Source of the DNA: Luminiphilus sp.
GTDB taxonomy: Bacteria; Pseudomonadota; Gammaproteobacteria; Pseudomonadales; Halieaceae
DNA length: 64,000 nt
Reading direction: 5' to 3'
Assembly: GCA_965658055.1 (NCBI GenBank)
Contig: CBFHQV010000004.1
Coordinates: forward strand, 609 to 64,608
Both the position numbers and the translations under genes were made by a program. How positions within the stretch are numbered: the first letter of the stretch is position 1; the number at the start of each line of letters is the position of its first letter. Under the pieces are notes generated by a model. The model had not been told where the DNA came from. It ran no database searches and worked only from the letters and a program-made list of their open reading frames with translations. Of this stretch, positions 27,840 to 64,000 are shown piece after piece.

Positions 27840-29603
27840 ATGGACACAGCGTTGACACTCCCAGCAGAAACACGGCTCGACGTTACGGCACTCGCCGAGG
27901 CGATGGTCCGCCACGATCGTTTGTCAGCCAAGGATCTATTGCGGCTGCGTGGAATGCGTCAAACCACAATCCATCCTTTGGTGTTTATTGCCGAGCAAAA
28001 GCTTGCGGACCCCTCGCTCAACGATACCTTGTGGGATATGCCGTCCTTATTGCAGTTTCTTTCCGAGCAGACCAACCAGCCAGTCGTCGAAATTGACCCG
28101 CTCAAAGTGGATGTAAAAGCCGTTGCCGAGGTTATGTCAGAAGCCTTCGCAGAGCGCCATCGTATTCTCGCGGTAGCAGTATCCGGTGATGAGGTCACAA
28201 TCGCGAGCGCGGAACCCTGGGTTGCGGCATGGGAGAAAGATCTCGAACACGTTATTCGAAGACCTATCAAACGGGTGTTGGCAGATCCACGTGACATCAG
28301 TCGGTATACCCGGGAATTCTATGCCATGGCGCGCTCCGTCGAGGGCGCTCGGCACCGCGCTCAGGGCGGAAGTGATTTATCGAACCTCGAGGCGATGGTT
28401 CAGCTCGGCAGCGGTGAGCCCGATGCTAACGATCAACATATTGTTCGGGTTGTTGATTGGCTGCTGCAGTACGCGTTTGAACAGCGGGCCAGCGATATCC
28501 ACGTCGAGCCACGGCGGGATGTGGGGAATGTCCGTTTCCGCATCGATGGTGTGTTACACAAAGTTTATGAGCTGCCCAGTGCCGTGGCGGCAGCGGTCAC
28601 AAGCCGGTTAAAAATACTGGCCAGATTGGACGTGGCGGAAAAGCGCAGGCCTCAGGATGGTCGATTGAAAACCCGTTCACCAGCTGGTGGTGAAATTGAG
28701 CTACGGCTGTCAACGCTTCCCACGGCATTTGGTGAGAAGCTGGTGATGCGAATTTTTGATCCTGAAGTGCTGCTGAAATCATTCGATGATCTCGGCCTGC
28801 GTGGTGACGACTATAAGCGTTGGCAGGGCATGATCGCCCAGGGCACCGGCATTGTGCTGGTCACTGGACCCACAGGGTCGGGTAAAACAACGACGCTTTA
28901 TTCCACCTTGCGACAGCTGGCGACCCCTGACGTAAATGTCTGCACCATTGAAGACCCGATTGAAATGATGGAGCCCTCCTTTAACCAAATGCAGGTCAAT
29001 CAAACCATTGATTTGGATTTTGCGACAGGGGTGCGCGCGTTGATGCGGCAGGACCCAGACATCATTATGGTTGGAGAAATTCGCGACCTTGAAACCGCGA
29101 ACATGGCTATTCAAGCAGCGCTGACGGGACACCTAGTTCTAAGCACCCTGCACACCAACGATTCTCCCGGTGCTATATCGCGGCTCATTGAATTGGGTGT
29201 GCCTCCCTTTTTACTGCGTGCAACGGTGCGTGGTGTCATGTCCCAGCGATTGGTGCGCAGGCTTTGTGAGTCTTGTAAACAGCCTGAGCCAGTCGACGCC
29301 GCTATTTGGTCTTCCTTGGTAGATGCCGAGGCAACGCCACCACCCGCTAACAGTTACCGCCCCATTGGGTGTAAGCAGTGTCGAGATACCGGTTATCGCG
29401 GCCGTGAAGGCGTTTACGAAGTGTTAGTCGCGGATGAGGCGGTGCAATCTCACATCGTCAACAACCACAACATGGGCGATCTCCGAGAGGCGGCCAGGCA
29501 AGGTGGCATGGTTCCGCTTCGGACCGCTGGCGCAGAGAAAGTGGCTCGAGGAGAAACGACCATCGAAGAGGTCCTGCGAGTAACCCCCGCCTTTGAGGAC
29601 TGA
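27840..29603 (+). CDS. GspE/PulE/PilB-family secretion ATPase, with no other secretion genes nearby
   Basis: The product has a T2SSE_N-like N-domain. Walker A reads GPTGSGKTTT, the Asp box EDPIE, Walker B IIMVGEIRD and the His box STLHTN. A tetracysteine cluster is present (CESC...CKQC). Confidence 0.9.
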   Translation: MDTALTLPAETRLDVTALAEAMVRHDRLSAKDLLRLRGMRQTTIHPLVFIAEQKLADPSLNDTLWDMPSLLQFLSEQTNQPVVEIDPLKVDVKAVAEVMSEAFAERHRILAVAVSGDEVTIASAEPWVAAWEKDLEHVIRRPIKRVLADPRDISRYTREFYAMARSVEGARHRAQGGSDLSNLEAMVQLGSGEPDANDQHIVRVVDWLLQYAFEQRASDIHVEPRRDVGNVRFRIDGVLHKVYELPSAVAAAVTSRLKILARLDVAEKRRPQDGRLKTRSPAGGEIELRLSTLPTAFGEKLVMRIFDPEVLLKSFDDLGLRGDDYKRWQGMIAQGTGIVLVTGPTGSGKTTTLYSTLRQLATPDVNVCTIEDPIEMMEPSFNQMQVNQTIDLDFATGVRALMRQDPDIIMVGEIRDLETANMAIQAALTGHLVLSTLHTNDSPGAISRLIELGVPPFLLRATVRGVMSQRLVRRLCESCKQPEPVDAAIWSSLVDAEATPPPANSYRPIGCKQCRDTGYRGREGVYEVLVADEAVQSHIVNNHNMGDLREAARQGGMVPLRTAGAEKVARGETTIEEVLRVTPAFED

Positions 29604-49068: not shown

Positions 49069-50511
49069 TTAGGGTGACGCGGCTCCGCCCCCTGCAGTGG
49101 GCGCGGGTGGTGGCACGAGTGCGCTGTTGAGCATCGCGACATCATCTGGTGACAGTGACCCTGCGTTTTCTTTCAGTCTCAACAGGCTGATGACGTAGTC
49201 ATAGCGGGCGTTTGCGTAGTCCCGCAAAGAGGTATAGAGCAAGTTTTGTGCATTGAGGACATCAACGATATTACGTGTACCTACCTCATACCCTGCCTCG
49301 GTAGCGTCTAGTGCGCTTTCCGCGGAGCGAATCGATTGTTTGCGCGCCTTGACGCGCGCTGAATTAGAGGCAACGGTCATGTGCAAAGAGCGTGCATTGG
49401 TAATCGTTGTTCTCTCGAGGTTAATACGCGACTCCATCGCCGCTACGTGTTGCTGAGCTGACTGGCGTCTTTGGGCGTGTAACCTGCCCCCTAGGAATAA
49501 GGGCATATCAACCCGCACCTGCCACACTTCCCGCTGATCGTCGGATTGGGGTTGAACGAGAAAGATAGGTGTGGGATCGGCGGTTCGTGTGCCCTCTGTC
49601 TCGGTATCTGAGTACTGATAGGACGCGGTAACGGTTGGGGCGTGCTGGGACGCACTGGCTTTGGCCGATTGGCGAGCGGATTCTTCGGCATACCGGGCCG
49701 CCGCAAGGTCGTAGTTATTATCGAGCGCCATCTTGACCCACTCAGCCCTGTCTGCAGGGGTTGGCGGGTTGGCCTCAAACTCCTCGCTCAGCAAGTACAA
49801 GGGGCCGTGATCCTGACCTGTCAGTATCGAGAGCCGCTCTTTGGCTACCGCTACATTGTTCTCTTCGACGATGCGCTGGACTTCGGCTAAATCCCTCGCC
49901 GCCTCCGACTCATAGACGTCGGTAATGGCAATCAGGCCCACTTCAAATCGCTGCTGGGTTTGCTCGAGTTGCCGGCTGAAGGCGCGTTCGGCAGCCTCAG
50001 CAGCGGCAAGATTGTCCTGGGCCCGCAAAACGCCGAGGTAGGCCTCGACCGTACGAACAATTAAATTTTGTGTCGCAGAAGCAAATTCGGCTTCTGCTTG
50101 CTTACTGAACTCCTGACCTGCGCGCAGGCTGTACCACGCACCGAGATCAAACAGGGGTTGGGCCAGCGCAAAATCCCACCCATCAGTTTTTACATCGGTT
50201 CTGTTATAGCCATCATCAATCGTGGGCTGTCCGGCGGGGGTGAACCCAACGATCTGCCGGCTTACCGATTCGGCGTCCGTCCCCGTGATGCCATATCCCG
50301 CCCGCACTTGCGGCAGTAGCGCGGACAACGCCACATTCTTATTCTCAACATTTGCAAGAAACTGCGCTTCCTGCGCTTTGAGCTGCGCATCATTTTCTAG
50401 CGCCAACTCATAGATATCCAGTAACGTCTCTGCGCTTACCGAGAGCGCAGAACAAGAAAACGTAAGGGCTGTTAGTGCGATTCCCCAGGGTTTAAGGTAC
50501 TTGCGGGGCAT
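49069..50511 (-). CDS. tolC: Outer membrane channel TolC
   Basis: The ATG at 50511 gives the signal peptide MPRKYLKPWGIALTALTFSCSALSVSAETLLDIYELA, a typical TolC mature N-terminus. Two OEP repeats follow. The position next to yqiB-cpdA-parE matches E. coli. Confidence 0.92.
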   Translation of the reverse strand: MPRKYLKPWGIALTALTFSCSALSVSAETLLDIYELALENDAQLKAQEAQFLANVENKNVALSALLPQVRAGYGITGTDAESVSRQIVGFTPAGQPTIDDGYNRTDVKTDGWDFALAQPLFDLGAWYSLRAGQEFSKQAEAEFASATQNLIVRTVEAYLGVLRAQDNLAAAEAAERAFSRQLEQTQQRFEVGLIAITDVYESEAARDLAEVQRIVEENNVAVAKERLSILTGQDHGPLYLLSEEFEANPPTPADRAEWVKMALDNNYDLAAARYAEESARQSAKASASQHAPTVTASYQYSDTETEGTRTADPTPIFLVQPQSDDQREVWQVRVDMPLFLGGRLHAQRRQSAQQHVAAMESRINLERTTITNARSLHMTVASNSARVKARKQSIRSAESALDATEAGYEVGTRNIVDVLNAQNLLYTSLRDYANARYDYVISLLRLKENAGSLSPDDVAMLNSALVPPPAPTAGGGAASP

Positions 50512-50646
50512 AGTGGGCTCCTTGGAACAGCGTGCAAAAAACCCGATAGAGTATACAGCCTGCACACCTGAAAATGCTCGTGATATTTTGGACTGCTAAG
50601 GGGCCTCGGTGTTGTTACACTCACAGGAGCATGGGGAGGAAAGACC

Positions 50647-54578: not shown

Positions 54579-56819
54579 CTAGCGCGAACTTAAGGTTCGA
54601 GAAAGCGCTTGCAGTTGCGCTTGGTAGCGGCCTTCTTCAGCGCGATTTCCCAGCTCGCCGTGGTAGCTAATCAGCGCGTACAGTAACTGGGGCTGACCCG
54701 GAAACTCGGTGTTAAGACGCTCCAGGAGTTGAACTGCCTCGGTCGGTGATCCGGTGTCATGGAGTGCTACGGCGTAGACGTATCGATGACGGGTTGATTC
54801 CGACTCCATTGCGGCAGCGCGAGCGAGCAGGGGCAGGGCTTGGTCCGTGTTGCCCTCACGAATTTCCAGTAGCCCCAGTGCATGAAGTAGTGTGCCCGGA
54901 TTCGGGATACTTTCGATACCGCGCGTGAGCAGCTCTTTTGCCTCTTTTTCTCGGTGGCTCGCTCTCAGTAAATCAGCGAGATTTATGTAGGCGGCTTCCA
55001 TCTGGTTATTGAGCACCAGCGCCTCGCGCAGGGCCTTCTCGGCCTGCGGGAAATCGCCTCGCAGTCGCCAGTAATTTCCCAGTTGAAGCTGCACCGACGG
55101 CATATCCAGATGCTGTGATTGAACCCGCTCATACTCTTCGAACAGGGGCGCCAGCCCCGCAATATCCTGTGGCCTTAGCTCCTCAACAGGCGTGTCGGCA
55201 AGCTGTTCTGCAACCGCCATCCTGACCGCCAGGACGGGATCGTCAATGAGAGCCCTCAGCATTAAATACCGCTGCTGGGACCCCAAGCGCGCTAATGCTC
55301 GTACCGCCGAGACTCGTATCAAGCTGTCTTTAGCACCCAAAAGGACGGCTACAGATTGGGCGAGATCGGGACTCCCAAGCTGACCAAACTGATTGAGTGC
55401 TGACGCTCGCAGGATGGCCGGTTCGCCCGTTTCTGCCATGATTTTTTTAAGGGAGGGAATGCTTCTCATATCTCCCCGCTGGCTGGTATGGAGTGCCATC
55501 GCCGGGTGATTGCGGAGTGAGGCGAACTTAACCCCCCAGTCGCGGACGCGATCTAGAGCCCATGTTTGTGCCTTGTCGGTATGGCACTGGGTGCACGCGC
55601 TGGGCGCGCCAAGCTGAAGAGACAGATCGGGCCTGGGGATGCGCATGCTGTGATCCCGTCGTGCATCCACACCCATATAGACCTGCTCAGGCATATGACA
55701 GTTCACACACTGCGCACCCGCTGAGTCCGCCGGGTGGTGGTGATGGGCCGTCGTATCAAACACTGTGGGTTGGTGACATTGCGCACACAGCGCGTTTCCT
55801 TCGGCGACCAGCTTGTTGCTATGGGGATTGTGGCAATTCGTGCACACCACGCCCGCCTGGTGCATTTTGCTCTGTATGAACGACCCATACACGTAGACCT
55901 CATCCCTTATCTGCCCATCGGCCCTGTAAAGCGGATTTTCGATCAGCGCAAGACGGTGGGTGTCTAGAAGGTCAGCACCATAGTGATAATCGCCAAGCGT
56001 GCTACGCCGGGCATGGCAGCGCGCGCAGTTGGTTATCTGATGGTTTGAGGTGCTTTGGGTGGCGGGGGTCGCTATTGCCGCACCCTCAGACCACGCCCAT
56101 GTCGTCGTGTTCTTGAGAGACATTTCAAAACCGGCAAGTGGCGCCGTTATTTTTCCCTGTTGGGCAAGCGACACATGTTGCCCTCCCGGTCCGTGGCAGG
56201 CCTCGCACCCAACATCGATCTGATCGAACTCAGTGCTGAAGGTTCGATCGGTGGCCGAGTAGTTCTTGCGTAGGTTGGTGCTGTGGCACTCGGCACAGCG
56301 GGTATTCCAGTTCTGATAGGGGCCGGTCCAGTGCAGCGGGTCCCCCGCTTCGACGACTTCATCCGGATAGAGATGGTACCAGCGCTGTCCGCCCTCGGAG
56401 GCTGGGCGGGCATCCCATGCTATTGTCAATGCTTGAAGGCGACCACCTGCGAGAGGTAGCAAGTACTGTTGTAAGGGATAAACCCCAAAGACGTAGGCGA
56501 CTTCGTAGCGCTCCAGCGCGCCTTTCTCGTTATCTGTGCTAATCCAGTATTTGCCGTCTTCACGATAAAAGGTCGATGTGATGTCACCATAGGTGAAAGT
56601 GGCATTATCAAAGTCACCAAGCACGGTCTTCTCGCTGACTTCTTGCATCGCAAGATCGTGATGGGAGCCCAGCCAGTCCGCGGTCTCTTGTTGGTGGCAA
56701 TCGACACAGGCTGTATTTCCCACGTAGGTGTTGTTTTCTTGGGCTACTGCAAGCGAAGAGATTATTAGAATCGGGACTGCCAATAACGACTTAAAAACAC
56801 ATGTAAGCACCGGGTGCAT
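54579..56819 (-). CDS. Octaheme c-type cytochrome fused to HEAT-like and TPR repeats
   Basis: A signal peptide starts at the ATG at 56819. There are eight CxxCH motifs: CVDCH, CAECH, CEACH, CARCH, CTNCH, CAQCH, CVNCH and CTQCH. The C-terminal roughly 300 aa are helical repeats, for example GNYWRLRGDFPQAEKALREAL. The track ORF extends to 56843. Confidence 0.85.
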   Translation of the reverse strand: MHPVLTCVFKSLLAVPILIISSLAVAQENNTYVGNTACVDCHQQETADWLGSHHDLAMQEVSEKTVLGDFDNATFTYGDITSTFYREDGKYWISTDNEKGALERYEVAYVFGVYPLQQYLLPLAGGRLQALTIAWDARPASEGGQRWYHLYPDEVVEAGDPLHWTGPYQNWNTRCAECHSTNLRKNYSATDRTFSTEFDQIDVGCEACHGPGGQHVSLAQQGKITAPLAGFEMSLKNTTTWAWSEGAAIATPATQSTSNHQITNCARCHARRSTLGDYHYGADLLDTHRLALIENPLYRADGQIRDEVYVYGSFIQSKMHQAGVVCTNCHNPHSNKLVAEGNALCAQCHQPTVFDTTAHHHHPADSAGAQCVNCHMPEQVYMGVDARRDHSMRIPRPDLSLQLGAPSACTQCHTDKAQTWALDRVRDWGVKFASLRNHPAMALHTSQRGDMRSIPSLKKIMAETGEPAILRASALNQFGQLGSPDLAQSVAVLLGAKDSLIRVSAVRALARLGSQQRYLMLRALIDDPVLAVRMAVAEQLADTPVEELRPQDIAGLAPLFEEYERVQSQHLDMPSVQLQLGNYWRLRGDFPQAEKALREALVLNNQMEAAYINLADLLRASHREKEAKELLTRGIESIPNPGTLLHALGLLEIREGNTDQALPLLARAAAMESESTRHRYVYAVALHDTGSPTEAVQLLERLNTEFPGQPQLLYALISYHGELGNRAEEGRYQAQLQALSRTLSSR

Positions 56820-57119
56820 AGAGTCATCCCAAATGTTGCGCACAGGTCTATTCTCAAAGGCAAGCGAGCTTGCTGCCAGATGAACCCGTTTGGTATTTGG
56901 CTGACTGCCGTCAGCACGGCAACCCTAAACAAGGGTTATGCCCGTCCGACAGTAGCACAATCAAGGAATGCTCGGCCAAAAGTCGTAGGTTTGCTTCTGG
57001 CGTAATGGGCCGTAAGCCGTCCTTGGTCAGACGTGTAAATCCGATCTCAATTGTCCCCAAACGGGTAGGTTACATTTCGCTGTGGGGGCGTAAAATAAAG
57101 CCATGACGCGGGGGCCTCT

Positions 57120-58504: not shown

Positions 58505-59407
58505 ATGTGGTTTAAAAACGTCCGTCCTTACCGACTCTCTGATCGACTGGGTTTGGATGCCGACGCCCTAGCGCAACGGCTAGCGTCCCGCCCCTTTGTT
58601 CCCTGTCGTCCAGCACAGCCGCAAAGCACTGGATGGGTGCCGGCGTTGGCTGATTCGGCCGAGGCGCTGGTGCATGCGGCGAGCGCTTTTTGGATGGTAA
58701 GACTGAAACGAGAAGATCGCTTGTTACCCGCTACAGTGGTCCGCGAGGAGGTCGCTAATCGGATCAATCAGATTCAGGCCGCGGAATCGAGAAAGGTTTA
58801 CCGCAAGGAAAAGTTACAAATCACCGACGAGGTAACCCAGGATCTGCTACCCCGAGCCTTCACCCGAAGTCAGGGCATTGAGGCACTCCTGATGGAGCGT
58901 GATGGCTGGTTGTGGGTTAACCATGCAAGCCCAGCAAAGGGCGAGGAGTTGCTTTCGTTTTTGCGGGAAGCCATCGGTGGACTGCCAGCAGCCCTGCCTA
59001 TAACCCGTAAAAATCCAGCTGTTGTTATGAGCGATTGGTTGCTGCATAACGCGCTTCCGAAAGGGTTTGAATTTGGCACCGAGGCAGATCTTGCCGAGCC
59101 TGGGGAAGAGGGCGGTGTTGTTCGCTTGAGGAACATGATGATTGATTGTGACGAAGTGCGTGCTCATCTCGAGTCGGGAAAACAGGTGCAGCGCATGGCT
59201 CTGGAGTGGCAGGGTAGACTGAGTTTCGTGCTGGGTGCTGATCTAGTACTCAGACGCCTGCGCTTTGCTGACGAGCTCGTCAATTCTCATGAGGACCTCA
59301 AGGAAGACGCCCTTGCCCGCCGGGATGCGGACTTTTTGTTGATGTCTGAGACCCTTGCCGAGCTTTGGCCGGAGCTCCTCAGTGCGTTCGGGGGTTTGGA
59401 GGAATAG
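58505..59407 (+). CDS. rdgC: Recombination-associated protein RdgC
   Basis: The ATG at 58505 gives MWFKNVRPYRL, the hallmark RdgC N-terminus, and a length of about 300 aa. The track ORF starts earlier, at 58316. Confidence 0.92.
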   Translation: MWFKNVRPYRLSDRLGLDADALAQRLASRPFVPCRPAQPQSTGWVPALADSAEALVHAASAFWMVRLKREDRLLPATVVREEVANRINQIQAAESRKVYRKEKLQITDEVTQDLLPRAFTRSQGIEALLMERDGWLWVNHASPAKGEELLSFLREAIGGLPAALPITRKNPAVVMSDWLLHNALPKGFEFGTEADLAEPGEEGGVVRLRNMMIDCDEVRAHLESGKQVQRMALEWQGRLSFVLGADLVLRRLRFADELVNSHEDLKEDALARRDADFLLMSETLAELWPELLSAFGGLEE

Positions 59408-59409
59408 CG

Positions 59410-59625
59410 ATGTTACCGTTGGGCCTTTATCGCCACTATAAAGGGGGTGAGTACCGCGTGATGGGCGTCGCGCGCCATTCGGAGACCGAAGAGCTATTGG
59501 TGGTATATCAGCCTCAATACGGCGAGCGTGACTGGTGGGTCAGGCCCCTTAGTATGTTTACCGAGCAAGTAGAGATTGAAGGAAGACTCATTCCCCGGTT
59601 TCAACACATTGAGGAATCAACATAG
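59410..59625 (+). CDS. DUF1653 domain protein
   Basis: The 71 aa product contains YRHYKGGEYRVMGVARHSETEELLVVYQP, the typical DUF1653 core. It starts 3 nt after the rdgC stop. Confidence 0.8.
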   Translation: MLPLGLYRHYKGGEYRVMGVARHSETEELLVVYQPQYGERDWWVRPLSMFTEQVEIEGRLIPRFQHIEEST

Positions 59626-59626
59626 G

Positions 59627-59647
59627 AAAAAAGACGGGTTAGCCCGT
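59627..59647 (-). terminator. Candidate intrinsic terminator of the ABC-HlyD-TolC operon
   Basis: On the minus strand the sequence is acgggCTAAcccgt followed by cTTTTTT. The 5 bp stem is weak, and the loop contains the stop codon of the TolC-like gene. Confidence 0.35.
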
Positions 59648-61030
59648 TAACTTCGCCAGCGTCGCATGCACCATCAGCTCATTACGAAACCTGTCGATGG
59701 TGGCATCAATCCGTTTCAGCTGAGCCTCCAGCGCGACTTTTTCTCGACTGATGAGAACAAACTGGGTTGATTCTCCCTCTTTGAACCTAGTCTGCTCTTG
59801 AGCTAGGAGCTCGAGTGCAAGCACCTCCTGCTCTTGGCTGCTGACCAGAATGTTTTGGTTGAAAGCCAGCGCGGTGAGGGATACCTGTAGGTCACGAAAC
59901 AACTGCGCGGCAAGCGCTTGGCGTTGATACTCCACCTCCCGTGTGGCCGCTGCTGCCATCGCCGCTCTACCCTTCGCTGCACGAACCCCGAGAGGAACCT
60001 CAAAGGAGAGTGCAATAATCGATTCAGTGCCATCGAGGGCTTCCGGCCCCGTACCAAAATCCTGAGCAACCTTCATTTCCAGATCAAGCTCTGGGAGCAG
60101 TTCATTACGGGCGATACGCTCATCGACGTTGAGTTGCTTAGCCTTGGCCGTTAGCGCTTGCAGTGCTGGATGGCGCTCAATGTCTGCAGACCATTCTTCT
60201 TGGGTTTGGTTGGTAACGACCCGAAAGGGCCAGGCAATATCAGCTGGCACCGTCAGCTTGCCGGTATCAGCTGACGCCGGTTCGTTAGTCGGCGTCAAAA
60301 AGTACTTCAGCTGTTCCTGTGCCTGAACCTCAATGCGCTCAGCTTCCTGGGCGAGAATTTGCCGTTGCGTTAAGGTGGTTCGATACTCTGTGAGGGTAAT
60401 AGCCGCCAGATCACCGCTTTCCACGCGTTGCTGAATAGCTGCGAGGCGGTCTTGGGTGAGTAACAGTAAACTGGTGACCACCTCCCGCTTGAGTGCGCTC
60501 TGGTACCAGTCTAGCCAGGCACTGACGCCACGATAGAGCAGTTTGTTGACGTCTAATAGCTGGCTGGAAGCTGCTTCCTGATAGCGCCAGGCCGCGTTTT
60601 CCAGTGCCAGACGGCGTGGGTCAGTATCCCTGTTTTGTAGCAGAGAAAGCTTTACGCCAAGACTTACTTCACCGACATCCAGGGTTTGCAGCTCCTGCTC
60701 ATAGACCGGAAAGGTCCCGTCAGACAATCGATAACCGCCGAAAACCTCGGCGTTGAAAGCCTTCAGCGGCTGCACAAGCCGTTGATCTGCAACCCGGCCA
60801 TCGTAATAGCCAGAGGGACGAATATCCGTGGACTGGGTGACGCGCAAGTCAAAAGCAGCGTCCGCGACTTGCTGCCGGCCAAGGGCGCGATCGGTTCTTG
60901 ACTGCGCGGCGAGCGCTTCAGGATGGCGTGCGGTCAACTGCGCAACCAGTACTTCGACACTTGGTGCAAACGACCCCCAAGCTGACTGCGCACAGGTAGC
61001 CAGAAGAGCACAGAGAAGTACAGATCTCAT
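59639..61030 (-). CDS. TolC-family outer membrane factor of a tripartite exporter
   Basis: The 463 aa product has a signal peptide (MRSVLLCALLATCAQSAWG) and two long coiled-coil/OEP repeats. Its ATGA start overlaps the HlyD stop. Confidence 0.85.
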   Translation of the reverse strand: MRSVLLCALLATCAQSAWGSFAPSVEVLVAQLTARHPEALAAQSRTDRALGRQQVADAAFDLRVTQSTDIRPSGYYDGRVADQRLVQPLKAFNAEVFGGYRLSDGTFPVYEQELQTLDVGEVSLGVKLSLLQNRDTDPRRLALENAAWRYQEAASSQLLDVNKLLYRGVSAWLDWYQSALKREVVTSLLLLTQDRLAAIQQRVESGDLAAITLTEYRTTLTQRQILAQEAERIEVQAQEQLKYFLTPTNEPASADTGKLTVPADIAWPFRVVTNQTQEEWSADIERHPALQALTAKAKQLNVDERIARNELLPELDLEMKVAQDFGTGPEALDGTESIIALSFEVPLGVRAAKGRAAMAAAATREVEYQRQALAAQLFRDLQVSLTALAFNQNILVSSQEQEVLALELLAQEQTRFKEGESTQFVLISREKVALEAQLKRIDATIDRFRNELMVHATLAKLTG

Positions 61031-62046
61031 GGCGTCGCGTTGGGCCTTTGCTGTGGCGGGAAGTTATTGAGCTGCCGCCACAGTTCATAACCCAGACGGA
61101 CCTCTTCTAACAAAATCCAGCCTTTCACGCGGCTGCCGAGCCGAGCATATTTTGACTCGGGCCATGGGTTGTCCGCGGGATCAGGCTTGATCCAGACATT
61201 GAAGCGTCCCTGAGCATTTGCTACGGGTTCTATGAAGTCGACAATGCCACCAAAAGTGCCGATGCCGTTGTCCGGCCAGCCGCTAAATTGAAATACCGGC
61301 CAACCCTCGAACTGCAGCCGAACGCGGCGCCCGGGATAAACGAGCGGAGCGTCCAAACCAGACACAGCCAACACGACATTGCGGGCTTTACCCTCGGGAA
61401 TAAAAGAGGCAAGCACGTCGCCCGGTGTCACGTAAGTGGCGCTGCCCGAAGGCTTGAGACGCAAAATGGTGCCATCCGAAGGTGCGACCTTGGTTTGTAA
61501 GGACTGTCTCGCCTTGTCCACACCGAGCCGATTGATTTCTGCTTCGATTTTGGCGGCCTCTGCGCGCAGCTTTTGAATGTCCAATTGCGCCTTCTCAATA
61601 TCCCGCTGTGACTTGAGGCCCTGCTCCTGTAAGCGCTGTTGGCGCAGGAGATTCTGCTCTTCGGTGGTTGTCGCTTGTTGAATAGCAGCCATTTGCTGGT
61701 TGGCCGCGGCGAGCTGATTTTCCAACCGCTGAATCAGCTCGGGATCGCTGTCGACCAACGAGACAATCGGATCGCCTGCCTTGACCGCTTGCCCCTCAGT
61801 CACATGCCAGGTCTGTATTTGACCGGGGACCAGGGCAGAAATGGCCTGGATGCGCTCGGCGGGGAGGGGCGTATTGACCTCGCCGTCACCAAAAGCGGTT
61901 TGTGTCCAAGGAATAAACCAAAGGAGGGCTATGAGGAGGCAGATGCCCCCTATCAGGATGGCGCTAAAGACCTGGTGCCACTTTGGTAAGGGCACCTCAT
62001 TAAGCGCATTGATCTGGCTTAGATAGCGCTGGCGCAGGTCACTCAT
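61027..62046 (-). CDS. HlyD-family periplasmic adaptor (membrane fusion protein)
   Basis: The product has an N-terminal TM (VFSAILIGGICLLIALLWFIPW), a lipoyl-like hairpin (VTEGQAVKAGDPIVSL ... APSDGTILRL) and a Q/A-rich coiled coil between them. Confidence 0.88.
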   Translation of the reverse strand: MSDLRQRYLSQINALNEVPLPKWHQVFSAILIGGICLLIALLWFIPWTQTAFGDGEVNTPLPAERIQAISALVPGQIQTWHVTEGQAVKAGDPIVSLVDSDPELIQRLENQLAAANQQMAAIQQATTTEEQNLLRQQRLQEQGLKSQRDIEKAQLDIQKLRAEAAKIEAEINRLGVDKARQSLQTKVAPSDGTILRLKPSGSATYVTPGDVLASFIPEGKARNVVLAVSGLDAPLVYPGRRVRLQFEGWPVFQFSGWPDNGIGTFGGIVDFIEPVANAQGRFNVWIKPDPADNPWPESKYARLGSRVKGWILLEEVRLGYELWRQLNNFPPQQRPNATP

Positions 62047-63691
62047 CGCCGGCTCCCTCAGATGCGGTAAGCACTTTCTGCTCTGTAAAAGCTGGGTGCG
62101 GCGGTTGACTGCTGAAGTAAAGAACGGTCATCGGTTGTTCCGAAAGCATCTCCAGAACCCCATCCCGGACTGAGGGGAGTAGCTGATCGAAGAGCTGGTT
62201 TAACACCAGTACCGAGGGCTTGCCCAGCAGAGCACCCGCCAGCTTTAGTAGCAGCATCTCGGCGCCCTGAAGGGGCGATCCCGTCGCTGACAGTTGGGTA
62301 TTCAGTCCTTCAGGAAATGATTCGATAAGTGGCCACAGGTACACCTTTTGGAGCACCGTGATGAGCGTCTCGGTATCCGCTTCTGCACTGTGTAAGGCCA
62401 GAAAATCCCGGATGCTACATTCAAGAATGAGAGAGCGGTCAACACCCAGAATCGCCTGCCTCAGTTCAAGGAGGTCAAAATCTTCTAGATTGATGTTGCC
62501 TAAATTGATACGTCCGCCGTTGACTGGACGGTGTGCACGCAGTACGGAGAGCACAGCCGGTTGAATCCAGGCTTCTTCCGTCCTGACGCACACTTTAGCG
62601 CCCGCGGGTATCGACCACGCTAGTTGGCACTGTCGATTGCCGCGACGGATTTTGGCGTCGATAAAATCAAGGCTGGCTGCTACCGGGGCACTCGCCACTC
62701 CGCGCGGGTTTTCCTCCGGTAACGACAGCACCTCGCTGAGCTTATCCGCAGACCCATAGAGCTCGTAGTAATATTTTAAATAGCTTGAGAAGCGAGAGAG
62801 GCCCAAGAAAATGGCGGCCATTACAAGCTCTGCGGCTACCAACTGCCCGATAGAGAGCTCGCCAAGTGTCACCAGCCATCCGCCTAACGCTAACAGGGCT
62901 GCGCTACCCACGGCGTAGAGCAATAAAAAGCTAATGGTTTGACTAAAGGTTTGACCAAACAGGCGCTTATGCTCATCAAGGTAAGCGGTTGTGAGATCGT
63001 TAGTTTTACTCGCGGCAAGCGTGAGGTGCCGCTTCGATTTAAAGAAGTCATGGGCGACCTCCATATCGGACAGCCACCGTGCCATCGCATATTTTTGTTT
63101 GGAAAGCGCGACTGCCGCCCGTCGTGCGCCGGGGGACCATAATGTCCAAATGAGCATGACGATCAGCAAGGTGAGAGCGTTGAAGAGAAAAAGCCAGGGG
63201 TGGTAAAAAGACACCAACGTAAAGCCCACCGCGGTTTGCAAAATAAGCGCAAAACCATCGGCAAAAAGCCGGGGTACATTTTTCTGCAGAATCATGATGT
63301 CGAAATAACGGTGGGTCATGCCGGTATTCCGCCGCCCCTCAAACACCCAGTGTGGCGCCCGAACCACGCTGTAGCTAATTTCTGCGGATAAGCGGGCAAA
63401 GATTCGCCGTCGGTATATTTCCACAACCCAGACGCGGGCTGCGCTCAACGCGCCATAACCGAGCAGGATGATCAATAGGGTGAGGGCCAAAAAGTAGACG
63501 GCGCGCAAGGAGCCGATATTTGCGATGCTGTTGATCAGGGTTTGCACGGCGATTGGCACCGCAAGGGTCATGACGCTAATGGCCGCGCCATAGATGACGA
63601 TAACCCATAAAAAATTGGATTCAGGTGCCAAAAGCGCCCATAGCTGGCGGCGCAGTGCGGCTAAATCAATGGGGGTAGGAGTGCTTGCCAT
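62039..63691 (-). CDS. ABC exporter-like protein with an intact type-I exporter membrane domain but a degenerate, motif-less nucleotide-binding domain
   Basis: The 550 aa product has six predicted TM helices within aa 25-300, with ABC_membrane-like spacing. The C-terminal domain aligns in order with an NBD, but Walker A is VRTEEAWIQP, the signature is LSATGSPLQ, Walker B is VLVLNQ and there is no H-loop His. Confidence 0.8.
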   Translation of the reverse strand: MASTPTPIDLAALRRQLWALLAPESNFLWVIVIYGAAISVMTLAVPIAVQTLINSIANIGSLRAVYFLALTLLIILLGYGALSAARVWVVEIYRRRIFARLSAEISYSVVRAPHWVFEGRRNTGMTHRYFDIMILQKNVPRLFADGFALILQTAVGFTLVSFYHPWLFLFNALTLLIVMLIWTLWSPGARRAAVALSKQKYAMARWLSDMEVAHDFFKSKRHLTLAASKTNDLTTAYLDEHKRLFGQTFSQTISFLLLYAVGSAALLALGGWLVTLGELSIGQLVAAELVMAAIFLGLSRFSSYLKYYYELYGSADKLSEVLSLPEENPRGVASAPVAASLDFIDAKIRRGNRQCQLAWSIPAGAKVCVRTEEAWIQPAVLSVLRAHRPVNGGRINLGNINLEDFDLLELRQAILGVDRSLILECSIRDFLALHSAEADTETLITVLQKVYLWPLIESFPEGLNTQLSATGSPLQGAEMLLLKLAGALLGKPSVLVLNQLFDQLLPSVRDGVLEMLSEQPMTVLYFSSQPPHPAFTEQKVLTASEGAGDE

Positions 63692-63815: not shown

Positions 63816-64000
63816 ATGAAAGCTCTCAGGGAGCAAAATTCGGCCCTCGGGGACAGCAAACAGGGCGGTCAGAGCCTTCTCAGGGGGCTTGCCTTGCCCC
63901 TGACGCTGAGCCTGTTGGTGGGCTGCGCCAGCGCCCCCCAGGTCATGGAAAAATCGCCAAGTTATGTCGCGGACAGGGCCCCTGTGGGGTCACCCCTCGA
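63816..64000 (+). CDS. Putative lipoprotein, 5' fragment that continues beyond the window
   Basis: The ATG at 63816 gives ...LALPLTLSLLVGCASAP (lipobox LVGC). The ORF is open to the window end, and no family was recognised. Confidence 0.4.
   Translation, partial: MKALREQNSALGDSKQGGQSLLRGLALPLTLSLLVGCASAPQVMEKSPSYVADRAPVGSPL

Follow-up and report, generated by a model that had tools for sequence, protein, structure and literature searches.

In the textbook view, tripartite pumps and ATP-binding cassette (ABC) exporters are driven either by ATP or by the proton-motive force (PMF), with one energy source for each family of inner-membrane components. Type I secretion systems (T1SS) and PCAT exporters are encoded by sets of ABC, adaptor and outer-membrane factor (OMF) genes, while EmrAB provides a precedent for a PMF-driven tripartite pump outside the RND family. 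Besides, MsbA devoid of its nucleotide-binding domain (NBD) mediates ΔpH-dependent ethidium efflux, as likewise reported for the membrane domain of LmrA (PMC4979069). The engineered proteins, MsbA-MD and LmrA-MD, are type IV membrane domains that use the proton gradient without an ATPase (PMC4979069; cited in PMC8442886); they were made in the laboratory by truncating ATP-driven pumps and do not reach the efficiency of the wild type. SbmA and BacA (SLiPT) have an ABC-exporter-like fold and no ATPase, their ABC-like membrane domain is proton-driven through conserved membrane glutamates, and they have been proposed to bridge primary and secondary transport (PMC8442886, PMC13316013). Here, we analyse a three-gene locus in a stretch of 64,000 nucleotides of a Luminiphilus sp. 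genome (Halieaceae; contig CBFHQV010000004.1), hereafter the 64-kb window. The locus, which we refer to as the trio, encodes an ABC-exporter-like inner-membrane protein, a periplasmic adaptor and an OMF. A sequence-only reading had pointed out that its ABC-like protein lacks every ATPase motif. We report that this state is shared by a widespread family, and tentatively interpret the trio as an ATP-independent exporter with an inner-membrane component of the ABC type IV fold, probably driven by an ion gradient.

Results

An ABC-exporter-like subunit devoid of every ATPase motif

The trio consists of three minus-strand open reading frames (ORFs) of 550, 339 and 463 amino acids (aa), in the order ABC-like protein, adaptor, OMF (Table 1). 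The ABC-like and adaptor genes overlap by 8 nt (62039-62046), and the adaptor and OMF genes by 4 nt, ATGA (61027-61030). The tripartite ABC-adaptor-OMF operon described from the sequence was confirmed. To place the motifs, the register was set by a phmmer alignment to ABCB10 together with family alignments. In this register, the Walker A Lys, the Q-loop Gln, the LSGGQ signature, the Walker B Asp-Glu pair and the H-loop His are all gone from the ABC-like protein, as the sequence-only reading had claimed, and neither alignment brought to light an intact motif that a manual register might have missed. For the signature, the loss itself stood and the register did not: the segment read as 'LSATG' lies seven residues too far towards the N-terminus, the true equivalent being LQGAE (aa 474-478). 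The D-loop Asp502 is retained. In the ABC mechanism, both composite ATP sites are crippled by a subunit that has neither Walker A nor signature. Judged by its sequence, the window subunit cannot supply Walker A, signature or catalytic base to any such site.

The domain that carried these motifs is still recognisable. Of the Pfam profiles, PF00664 alone matched the ABC-like protein (27.5 bits versus a cutoff of 28), and PF00005, the other profile that the sequence-only reading had proposed to search, remained without a match when E-values up to 1 were allowed. At about one tenth of their cutoffs, full-length NCBIfam models for HlyB, PrtD, MsbA and CydC align to residue ~500-517, and full-length NCBIfam and PDB alignments extend to aa ~500-546; because full-length exporter models align that far, the C-terminal domain is an NBD that has diverged rather than an unrelated domain. 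An AlphaFold2 (AF2) model reached a predicted local distance difference test score (pLDDT) of 83, with 84-93 in the C-terminal domain. Over the full length, Foldseek superposed it on PCAT1, TM287/288, HlyB and TmrAB with template modelling (TM) scores of 0.80-0.86, and the NBD fold is retained. Together, the Foldseek result and the PF00664 match just under its cutoff identify a type IV exporter membrane domain, and the C-terminal domain has NBD-fold homology despite the missing PF00005 match. Besides, a hidden Markov model (HMM) built from the NBDs of ATPase-competent cousins scores this domain, hereafter the pseudo-NBD, at 92 bits. By its predicted fold, the full-length superposition and this score, the pseudo-NBD is a true NBD descendant whose chemistry has been lost.

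The degenerate state is family-wide and under purifying selection

A word-indexed search with the ABC-like protein returned 738 matches, the top ones being full-length relatives of ~555 aa with 47-81% identity, for which precomputed Pfam annotation holds PF00664 only. An exhaustive search yielded 1,050 cluster representatives at E<1e-30, and at least 561 species-representative genomes encode a relative, among them Alteromonas, Paraglaciecola, Halioxenophilus, Woeseiaceae, Sphingomonas, Novosphingobium, Erythrobacter, Parvularcula and Kordiimonas. The closest named relative (81% identical) belongs to a Halieaceae metagenome-assembled genome, and a 99%-identical copy exists as well. Neither Pfam nor NCBIfam holds a curated family that recovers this ATPase-dead clade, its adaptor, its OMF or its ATPase-competent ('live') cousins above cutoff.

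We analysed 85 loci with the trio from Gamma- and Alphaproteobacteria. All 85 carry the three genes in the same order on a single strand, overlapping or abutting, and in all 85 orthologues the catalytic residues are missing; the Walker A pattern GxxGxGK[ST] is absent from the window protein and from each of them. What replaces the motifs is itself shared, with the consensus xQ[RK], [LV]DR[PS], G[WA]PL[SQ]xxE, VL[NS]Q.[FY]D and [IL]YF[ST]. At the position of Q377, 85% of the orthologues have Gln, and the marine gammaproteobacterial subclade shows no variation at W375 and Q377. Conversely, the nucleotide-contact positions that are ~100% conserved in the live cousins (G371, G374, G376, K377, N430, Q478, R486 and D498) have all been replaced. 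The conserved positions of the pseudo-NBD comprise fold-determining glycines and those regions with which a real NBD faces the coupling helices and its partner NBD, namely the Q-loop and X-loop areas, T465 and G471 (which precede the signature), the signature helix and D502.

The pseudo-NBD is under purifying selection. Most orthologue pairs were saturated at synonymous sites, and only three pairs gave usable ratios of non-synonymous to synonymous substitution rates (dN/dS, Nei-Gojobori), which amounted to 0.028, 0.044 and 0.077; pN lay far below pS in the pairs with saturation. The membrane domain is constrained two to three times more strongly (dN/dS 0.01-0.03; entropy 1.41 bits). These data bear on the trivial explanation, a decaying pseudogene or an assembly artefact, for which the missing motifs alone would speak and whose probability we put close to nil. 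It is refuted by the intact ORF, the 99%-identical copy, hundreds of full-length orthologues, the identical motif states in 85 of 85 and dN/dS values of 0.03-0.08. The sequence-only reading had likewise argued against a pseudogene, and the outcomes that would have overturned its view did not materialise: close relatives with intact motifs around a single decaying copy were not found, all 85 orthologues being equally degenerate, and a frameshift concealing a normal NBD is excluded because the degenerate motifs occur throughout the family.

Some Halieaceae carry a second type of dead trio (Chromatocurvus, L059; Congregibacter, L076 and L081) with a 'GWPLS' variant of the signature. Its ABC-like protein, only ~38-40% identical to that of the window, is nearer to the alphaproteobacterial versions, pointing to an old paralogy or to horizontal transfer.

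An ATPase-competent sister clade and natural variants without the NBD

The exhaustive search also recovered the live cousins, proteins of 700-780 aa (some ~560 aa) with a clear PF00005 match, GxxGSGKST, (P)LSxGQ, LLLDE and mostly a T-H H-loop. They occur in Polyangium, Hyalangium, Archangium, Schlesneria, Gemmataceae and Bryobacterales, and the sister group to the dead clade is made up of Myxococcota and Planctomycetota. NCBI names them 'peptidase domain-containing ABC transporter', and they do have an N-terminal extension; the 'peptidase domain' label rests on this naming only, since Pfam recognises no C39 domain in the extension. In Polyangium aurulentum and Schlesneria, the live cousin is part of the same ABC-adaptor-OMF trio, with no obvious cargo gene. 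Dead and live clades have hallmark membrane residues in common (Y163-H164-P165, K200, Q251 and G282-QLVAAE-L289), and when membrane domains were placed in a neighbour-joining tree, no Walker-A-bearing protein fell inside the dead proteobacterial clade, which stands apart from the live clade. Given the shared hallmarks and the separation of the clades, the translocation domain is ancestral and only the motor was lost; since the sister clade combines intact motifs with the same gene trio, this loss happened on a working machine.

The live clade is itself atypical: its Q-loop position holds Arg in place of Gln, and its signature reads (P)LSxGQ rather than LSGGQ. Moreover, cousins P0283, P0288, P0295, P0330 and P0366 (of the P0283-P0389 set) have lost part of their motifs. 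Such sequences suggest that the motor has eroded repeatedly in this lineage.

Other relatives have dispensed with the domain altogether. A membrane-domain-only gene (P0248/P0517) belongs to a cluster of 75 sequences, whose 15 listed members are all 340 aa long; it is 57% identical to the window membrane domain and occurs in many samples, on at least 24 contigs. It shares 4 nt with the gene for a 339-aa adaptor, which is followed by one for a 461-aa OMF. In P0293 (two assemblies) and P0297 (a 420-kb contig), the membrane domain is fused to the adaptor, with an OMF gene after each. The topology of these fusions is coherent, as TM6, the sixth transmembrane (TM) helix, ends in the cytoplasm, where the adaptor starts with a TM helix of its own. 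Shorter matches that comprise the transmembrane domain (TMD) only (P0298, P0307 and P0350) are possibly fragments. All NBD-less variants keep every hallmark residue, including Glu288 and the YHP motif; in the membrane-domain tree, their nearest neighbours are dead-NBD proteins and they are nested inside the dead clade. On this sequence evidence, the most economical reading is that the dead domain became dispensable and was then lost several times. These deletions are the strongest evidence added here to that of the sequence-only reading.

The variants also speak to a possible role of the pseudo-NBD as a ligand-gated switch, which would bind ATP, another nucleotide or a metabolite non-canonically and without hydrolysis, in loose analogy to CFTR and SUR. 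We regard this as improbable. The domain is held under purifying selection and the replacements at the former ATP site are conserved (W375, Q377, D418-R419, E478, N498-Q499 and Y525-F526) rather than random; however, nothing is left of the glycine-rich P-loop with its Lys or of the Walker B Asp, the family consensus, read from the alignment by eye, has no conserved aromatic residue at the A-loop site, and several lineages drop the domain and keep the rest of the system. Because these lineages manage without it, any regulation by the pseudo-NBD is non-essential, and the domain is not an energy source.

DabA and Proton_antipo_M genes (DAB-type inorganic-carbon pump genes) and a DUF6671 gene adjoin the trio in two widely differing relatives, namely L093 (14564-18159; Schlesneria), which encodes an ATPase-competent cousin, and L097 (11848-16055), which encodes a TMD-adaptor fusion. 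This adjacency is possibly a coincidence.

Searches for a partner ATPase, cargo and regulators

The sequence-only reading had seen neither a cargo nor a partner for the trio, and our searches of the 85 loci and the window, by clustering of flanks and small ORFs and by scans for ABC genes, likewise found none. Using the HMM of the cousins' NBDs and a Walker A regular expression, we scanned 10 kb on each side of the trio in the 85 loci, as well as the whole window. No Walker-A-bearing ABC gene recurred within these flanks (seven loci have unrelated ones), and the 64-kb window holds no second ABC NBD. Two matches of the Walker A expression inside a trio gene were dismissed as out-of-register chance matches.

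This result bears on the idea that the dead subunit is energised in trans by an ATPase-competent ABC half-transporter or an orphan NBD encoded elsewhere, which we consider very unlikely. Exporters that are heterodimers with one degenerate site are by no means rare, the structural matches include TM287/288 and TmrAB, the partner search extended over the flanks and the window, and the second, divergent trio of some Halieaceae might have offered a partner. That copy, however, is equally dead; the loss of Walker A and signature from one subunit would cripple both composite sites, no ABC ATPase is co-localised in the 85 loci or the window, and the pseudo-NBD occupies the very docking site that an orphan NBD would need. 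Nor did we find an ABC ATPase gene near the NBD-less and fusion variants.

Clustering of the flanking ORFs of >=70 aa and of small ORFs of 20-90 aa revealed no cargo candidate that travels with the trio. Specifically, no 20-90-aa ORF within 1.2 kb of the trio is broadly conserved, as an adjacent GG-leader peptide gene would be, and no RTX or C-terminal-signal substrate is linked to it. The sole neighbour that recurs across lineages in the 85 loci is a LysR regulator most similar to NhaR (NF008284, 192 bits versus a cutoff of 219), whose gene lies directly upstream, mostly in divergent orientation, in 28 loci (L007-L049 and others) from Alteromonadaceae and several Alphaproteobacteria. The window has no such gene. 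This neighbour would weakly fit a cation- or salt-responsive system.

The membrane domain as the conserved part

The protein opens directly with the membrane domain, and Pfam detected no C39 or CLD domain at its N-terminus, as the earlier reading had held. DSSP assigns the six helices of the model to residues 10-58, 62-111, 125-161, 165-216, 220-275 and 281-322. The TM6 hallmark G282-QLVAAE-L289 with Glu288, which sits ~7 residues below the periplasmic start of the helix, reaches 100% conservation among the 85 orthologues and distant dead relatives alike, and 96% in the ATPase-competent cousins; Y163-H164-P165 is 97-100% conserved across dead and live clades.

Could a non-cycling ABC-like protein merely anchor and gate the adaptor-OMF tube, which would then serve as a facilitated-diffusion exit for a concentrated internal or periplasmic compound, or as a structural tether of the envelope? 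In favour of such a static scaffold or passive duct, the catalytic residues are all lost and the interface surfaces kept. The monomer model is nearest to NBD-closed, outward-facing or occluded structures (TmrAB 6rai, 0.86; ATP/Vi-bound PCAT1, 0.84; ATP-bound HlyB, 0.85) and matches inward-facing ones less well (TM scores 0.65-0.76), and the invariant polar residues Q50, N54, Y163, H164, Q283 and E288 cluster near the periplasmic helix ends. On the other hand, the membrane domain, including the pathway-lining TM6, is constrained beyond what an anchor would need, a conformational preference of AF2 is no evidence for a locked state, and the cell already owns a canonical TolC and simpler anchors. 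We therefore consider a passive role unlikely.

Adaptor and outer-membrane factor

The adaptor matches HlyD_3, Biotin_lipoyl_2 and HlyD_D23 in Pfam and scores 71 bits against TIGR01730, under the cutoff of 94.9. Its AF2 model (pLDDT 82) shows an N-terminal TM helix, a lipoyl domain, an α-hairpin of ~40+36 residues and a β-barrel. The best Foldseek matches are MacA, ZneB, AcrA/MexA and EmrA, and HlyD is absent from the top 50 structural matches; likewise, TIGR01843 gives 41 bits against a cutoff of 209. The 'HlyD adaptor' of the sequence-only reading is thus an adaptor indeed, although not of the HlyD type of T1SS but closer to those of efflux pumps (MacA, AcrA and EmrA). This type weakly points to the efflux of a small or amphipathic cargo rather than to the secretion of long unfolded proteins. 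The OMF diverges from both TolC and NodT, has no NCBIfam match and directly follows the adaptor in all 85 loci. Because a canonical TolC (TIGR01844, 315 bits versus a cutoff of 225) is encoded ~10 kb away, where the sequence-only reading had placed it, the OMF of the trio is a dedicated one.

Locus boundaries and neighbouring genes

A terminator-like hairpin with a T-run at the OMF stop codon likely marks the 3' end of the transcription unit, judging by a consensus scan, which is weak evidence. At the other end, a sigma-70 scan of the 124-nt gap upstream of the ABC-like gene found no promoter, and an Rfam scan upstream of the trio gave no match; a weak match to a miRNA family inside the OMF gene was judged to be noise.

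Both immediate neighbours were as previously described, a divergent upstream ORF with a lipoprotein-type signal and a downstream DUF1653 gene. The synteny of DUF1653, RdgC, glyoxalase and GATase genes downstream of the trio is confined to Halieaceae, and the lipoprotein neighbour is likewise a matter of local Halieaceae synteny. In the relative with the 81% identical ABC-like protein (L004), a 526-aa PLD-family (PLDc_2) gene occupies the position of the lipoprotein ORF. It is a possible link to envelope lipids that is not conserved in other lineages.

Outside the trio, the minus strand encodes a 754-aa protein (54579-56843) whose N-terminal half weakly matches multihaem cytochromes and whose C-terminal part has TPR repeats; L001 and L004, both Halieaceae relatives, have it conserved at this position, too. 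The Walker A screen of the window also picked up a type IV pilus assembly ATPase of the TfpB/PilB type on the plus strand (27840-29603; NF053534, 890 bits).

Table 1. The trio, its sequence features and its neighbours, in window positions (MFP, membrane fusion protein).
Feature	Position	Strand	Description and evidence
ABC-exporter-like inner-membrane protein, 550 aa	62039..63691	-	six-helix type IV exporter membrane domain and ATPase-dead pseudo-NBD
Membrane domain, aa 1-325	62717..63691	-	six long helices, very short periplasmic turns (DSSP of model)
Y163-H164-P165 hallmark	63197..63205	-	periplasmic TM3/TM4 turn (alignment conservation)
TM6 hallmark G282-QLVAAE-L289	62825..62848	-	membrane-embedded Glu288 (alignment conservation)
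Pseudo-NBD, aa 335-540	62072..62689	-	NBD fold kept, nucleotide-contacting residues replaced (HMM, pLDDT, dN/dS)
Walker A equivalent T371-EEAWIQPA-379	62555..62581	-	catalytic Lys aligns with Q377
Q-loop equivalent D418-R419	62435..62440	-	Arg at the Gln position (alignments)
Signature equivalent P473-LQGAE-478	62258..62275	-	family consensus PL[SQ]xxE (alignments)
Walker B and D-loop equivalent SVLVLNQLFD	62186..62215	-	V494-LVLNQ-499; Asp-Glu replaced by Asn-Gln
H-loop equivalent T522-VLYFS-527	62111..62128	-	no His; family consensus [IL]YF[ST] (alignments)
Periplasmic adaptor (MFP), 339 aa	61027..62046	-	HlyD_3, Biotin_lipoyl_2 and HlyD_D23 matches; AF2 model
Outer-membrane factor, 463 aa	59639..61030	-	signal peptide; PF02321 OEP, 51 bits, two stretches
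Terminator-like hairpin and T-run	59634..59647	-	at OMF stop codon (consensus scan only, weak evidence)
Divergent upstream ORF	63816-64000, runs off window	+	lipoprotein-type signal LLVGC
DUF1653 gene	59365-59625		downstream neighbour (Pfam match)
Canonical TolC	49069-50565		~10 kb from the trio (TIGR01844)

Discussion

The present work describes a tripartite locus in which the ATP motor of the inner-membrane subunit has been disabled yet kept, or deleted in relatives, which argues for a power source other than its own ATP hydrolysis. Our preferred interpretation, offered with less than even confidence, is that the trio forms a dedicated exporter that spans the envelope and whose inner-membrane ABC type IV component, presumably a homodimer, no longer uses ATP. 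Its membrane domain is the conserved working part, with the same hallmarks as in the ATPase-competent cousins, and the former NBD survives only as a structural pseudo-NBD. The driving force would be an ion gradient (H+ or possibly Na+) or the membrane potential, with Glu288 in TM6 as a candidate coupling site by likeness to SbmA/BacA and to NBD-less MsbA and LmrA. In LmrA, a TM6 carboxylate (E314) is reportedly critical for proton conduction, according to work by Shilling et al. from 2005. From the membrane domain, the substrate would enter the adaptor tube and then the dedicated outer-membrane duct. Since the adaptor resembles those of efflux pumps and the trio has no linked cargo gene, a small molecule, a lipid or a short peptide is a more likely cargo than a large unfolded protein.

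Several observations weigh against this interpretation. The ion coupling is purely inferred, by analogy. Glu288 is conserved in the ATPase-competent cousins too, so it was not gained with the loss of the motor and may instead bind substrate; a role as a newly acquired coupling residue was therefore rejected. It is also the single invariant acidic residue in the membrane, where SbmA has a ladder. Besides, most lineages retain the pseudo-NBD under selection, so the domain must do something, be it dimerisation, regulation or ligand binding. Finally, a distant genomic partner may be compatible with our data, as the searches covered 10-kb flanks and the 64-kb window.

If ATP-independent export is nevertheless what the trio performs, it might represent a fourth energetic class of tripartite efflux pump beside those with ABC-ATPase, RND and major facilitator superfamily (MFS) components, and a natural exporter in which an ABC membrane domain runs on an ion gradient; we put this forward as a possibility rather than as the expected outcome. 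As part of the same proposal, the ATPase-competent sister, the pseudo-NBD clade and the NBD-deleted or adaptor-fused forms could represent living stages in the evolution from primary to secondary transport. Were the proposal true, it would provide in vivo evidence for an idea under debate for a long time, namely that the membrane domains of ABC exporters are intrinsically secondary-active translocators. The family offers a natural system for testing secondary transport by such domains, a claim that so far rests mainly on engineered LmrA and MsbA and on the distant SbmA, and it opens the role of the pseudo-NBD to study. Culturable carriers exist in Alteromonas, Sphingomonas, Novosphingobium, Erythrobacter and Parvularcula, and the cargo could bear on the envelope physiology of abundant marine heterotrophs. 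Either way, the annotation 'ABC transporter ATP-binding protein' is misleading for proteins of the dead clade.

How does the trio relate to known systems? In the literature searched, including a 2021 review on tripartite systems, we found no tripartite pump described whose ABC component is ATPase-dead or lacks its NBD. By sequence models (TIGR03796, TIGR01846 and TIGR03375) and structures (PCAT1 and HlyB), the nearest relatives of the window protein are PCAT1, HlyB-HlyD-TolC, LssB and NHLM ABC1/ABC2. T1SS and PCAT exporters have the ABC-adaptor-OMF gene set and order in common with the trio. However, the window protein falls far short of the T1SS permease/ATPase families (TIGR01846, 75 bits versus a cutoff of 726; TIGR01842, 57 versus 510; TIGR03375, 55 versus 693), and the trio has no C39 or CLD domain, no ATPase motifs, no RTX or GG-leader gene and a short, 339-aa adaptor of the efflux type. 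TM287/288, TmrAB, BmrCD and PatAB have the same fold (TM scores 0.83-0.86), and both they and the window protein tolerate degeneration of ATP sites. Yet exporters of the TM287/288 type have one degenerate site, keep Walker A intact in both chains and use hydrolysis to drive transport, whereas the window protein has lost both halves of both sites.

Among tripartite efflux pumps, MacAB-TolC and EmrAB-TolC resemble the trio in their adaptor, anchored by an N-terminal TM helix and equipped with a hairpin of the MacA/EmrA kind, and in their dedicated or shared OMF. MacB differs in having a type VII fold, a large periplasmic domain, an N-terminal NBD and an active ATPase, none of which applies to the window protein with its type IV fold and C-terminal NBD, and the inner-membrane part of EmrAB belongs to the MFS, while that of the trio is a type IV ABC fold without ATPase. 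As to SbmA/BacA, no homology to PF05992 was detected in the window protein, for which Pfam at E<=1 yields PF00664 alone. SbmA, an importer without adaptor or OMF, possesses an additional TM0 and lacks coupling helices and any remnant of an NBD, whereas the window protein has its pseudo-NBD; the glutamate ladder of SbmA stands against a single invariant Glu in the window family, so any resemblance would be functional and hypothetical only. MsbA-MD and LmrA-MD have their direct counterpart in the natural TMD-only relatives of 340 aa. In contrast to these constructs, the family described here is natural, ancient, widespread and tripartite, and most of its members keep a pseudo-NBD. Its architecture is familiar; its energetics are not.

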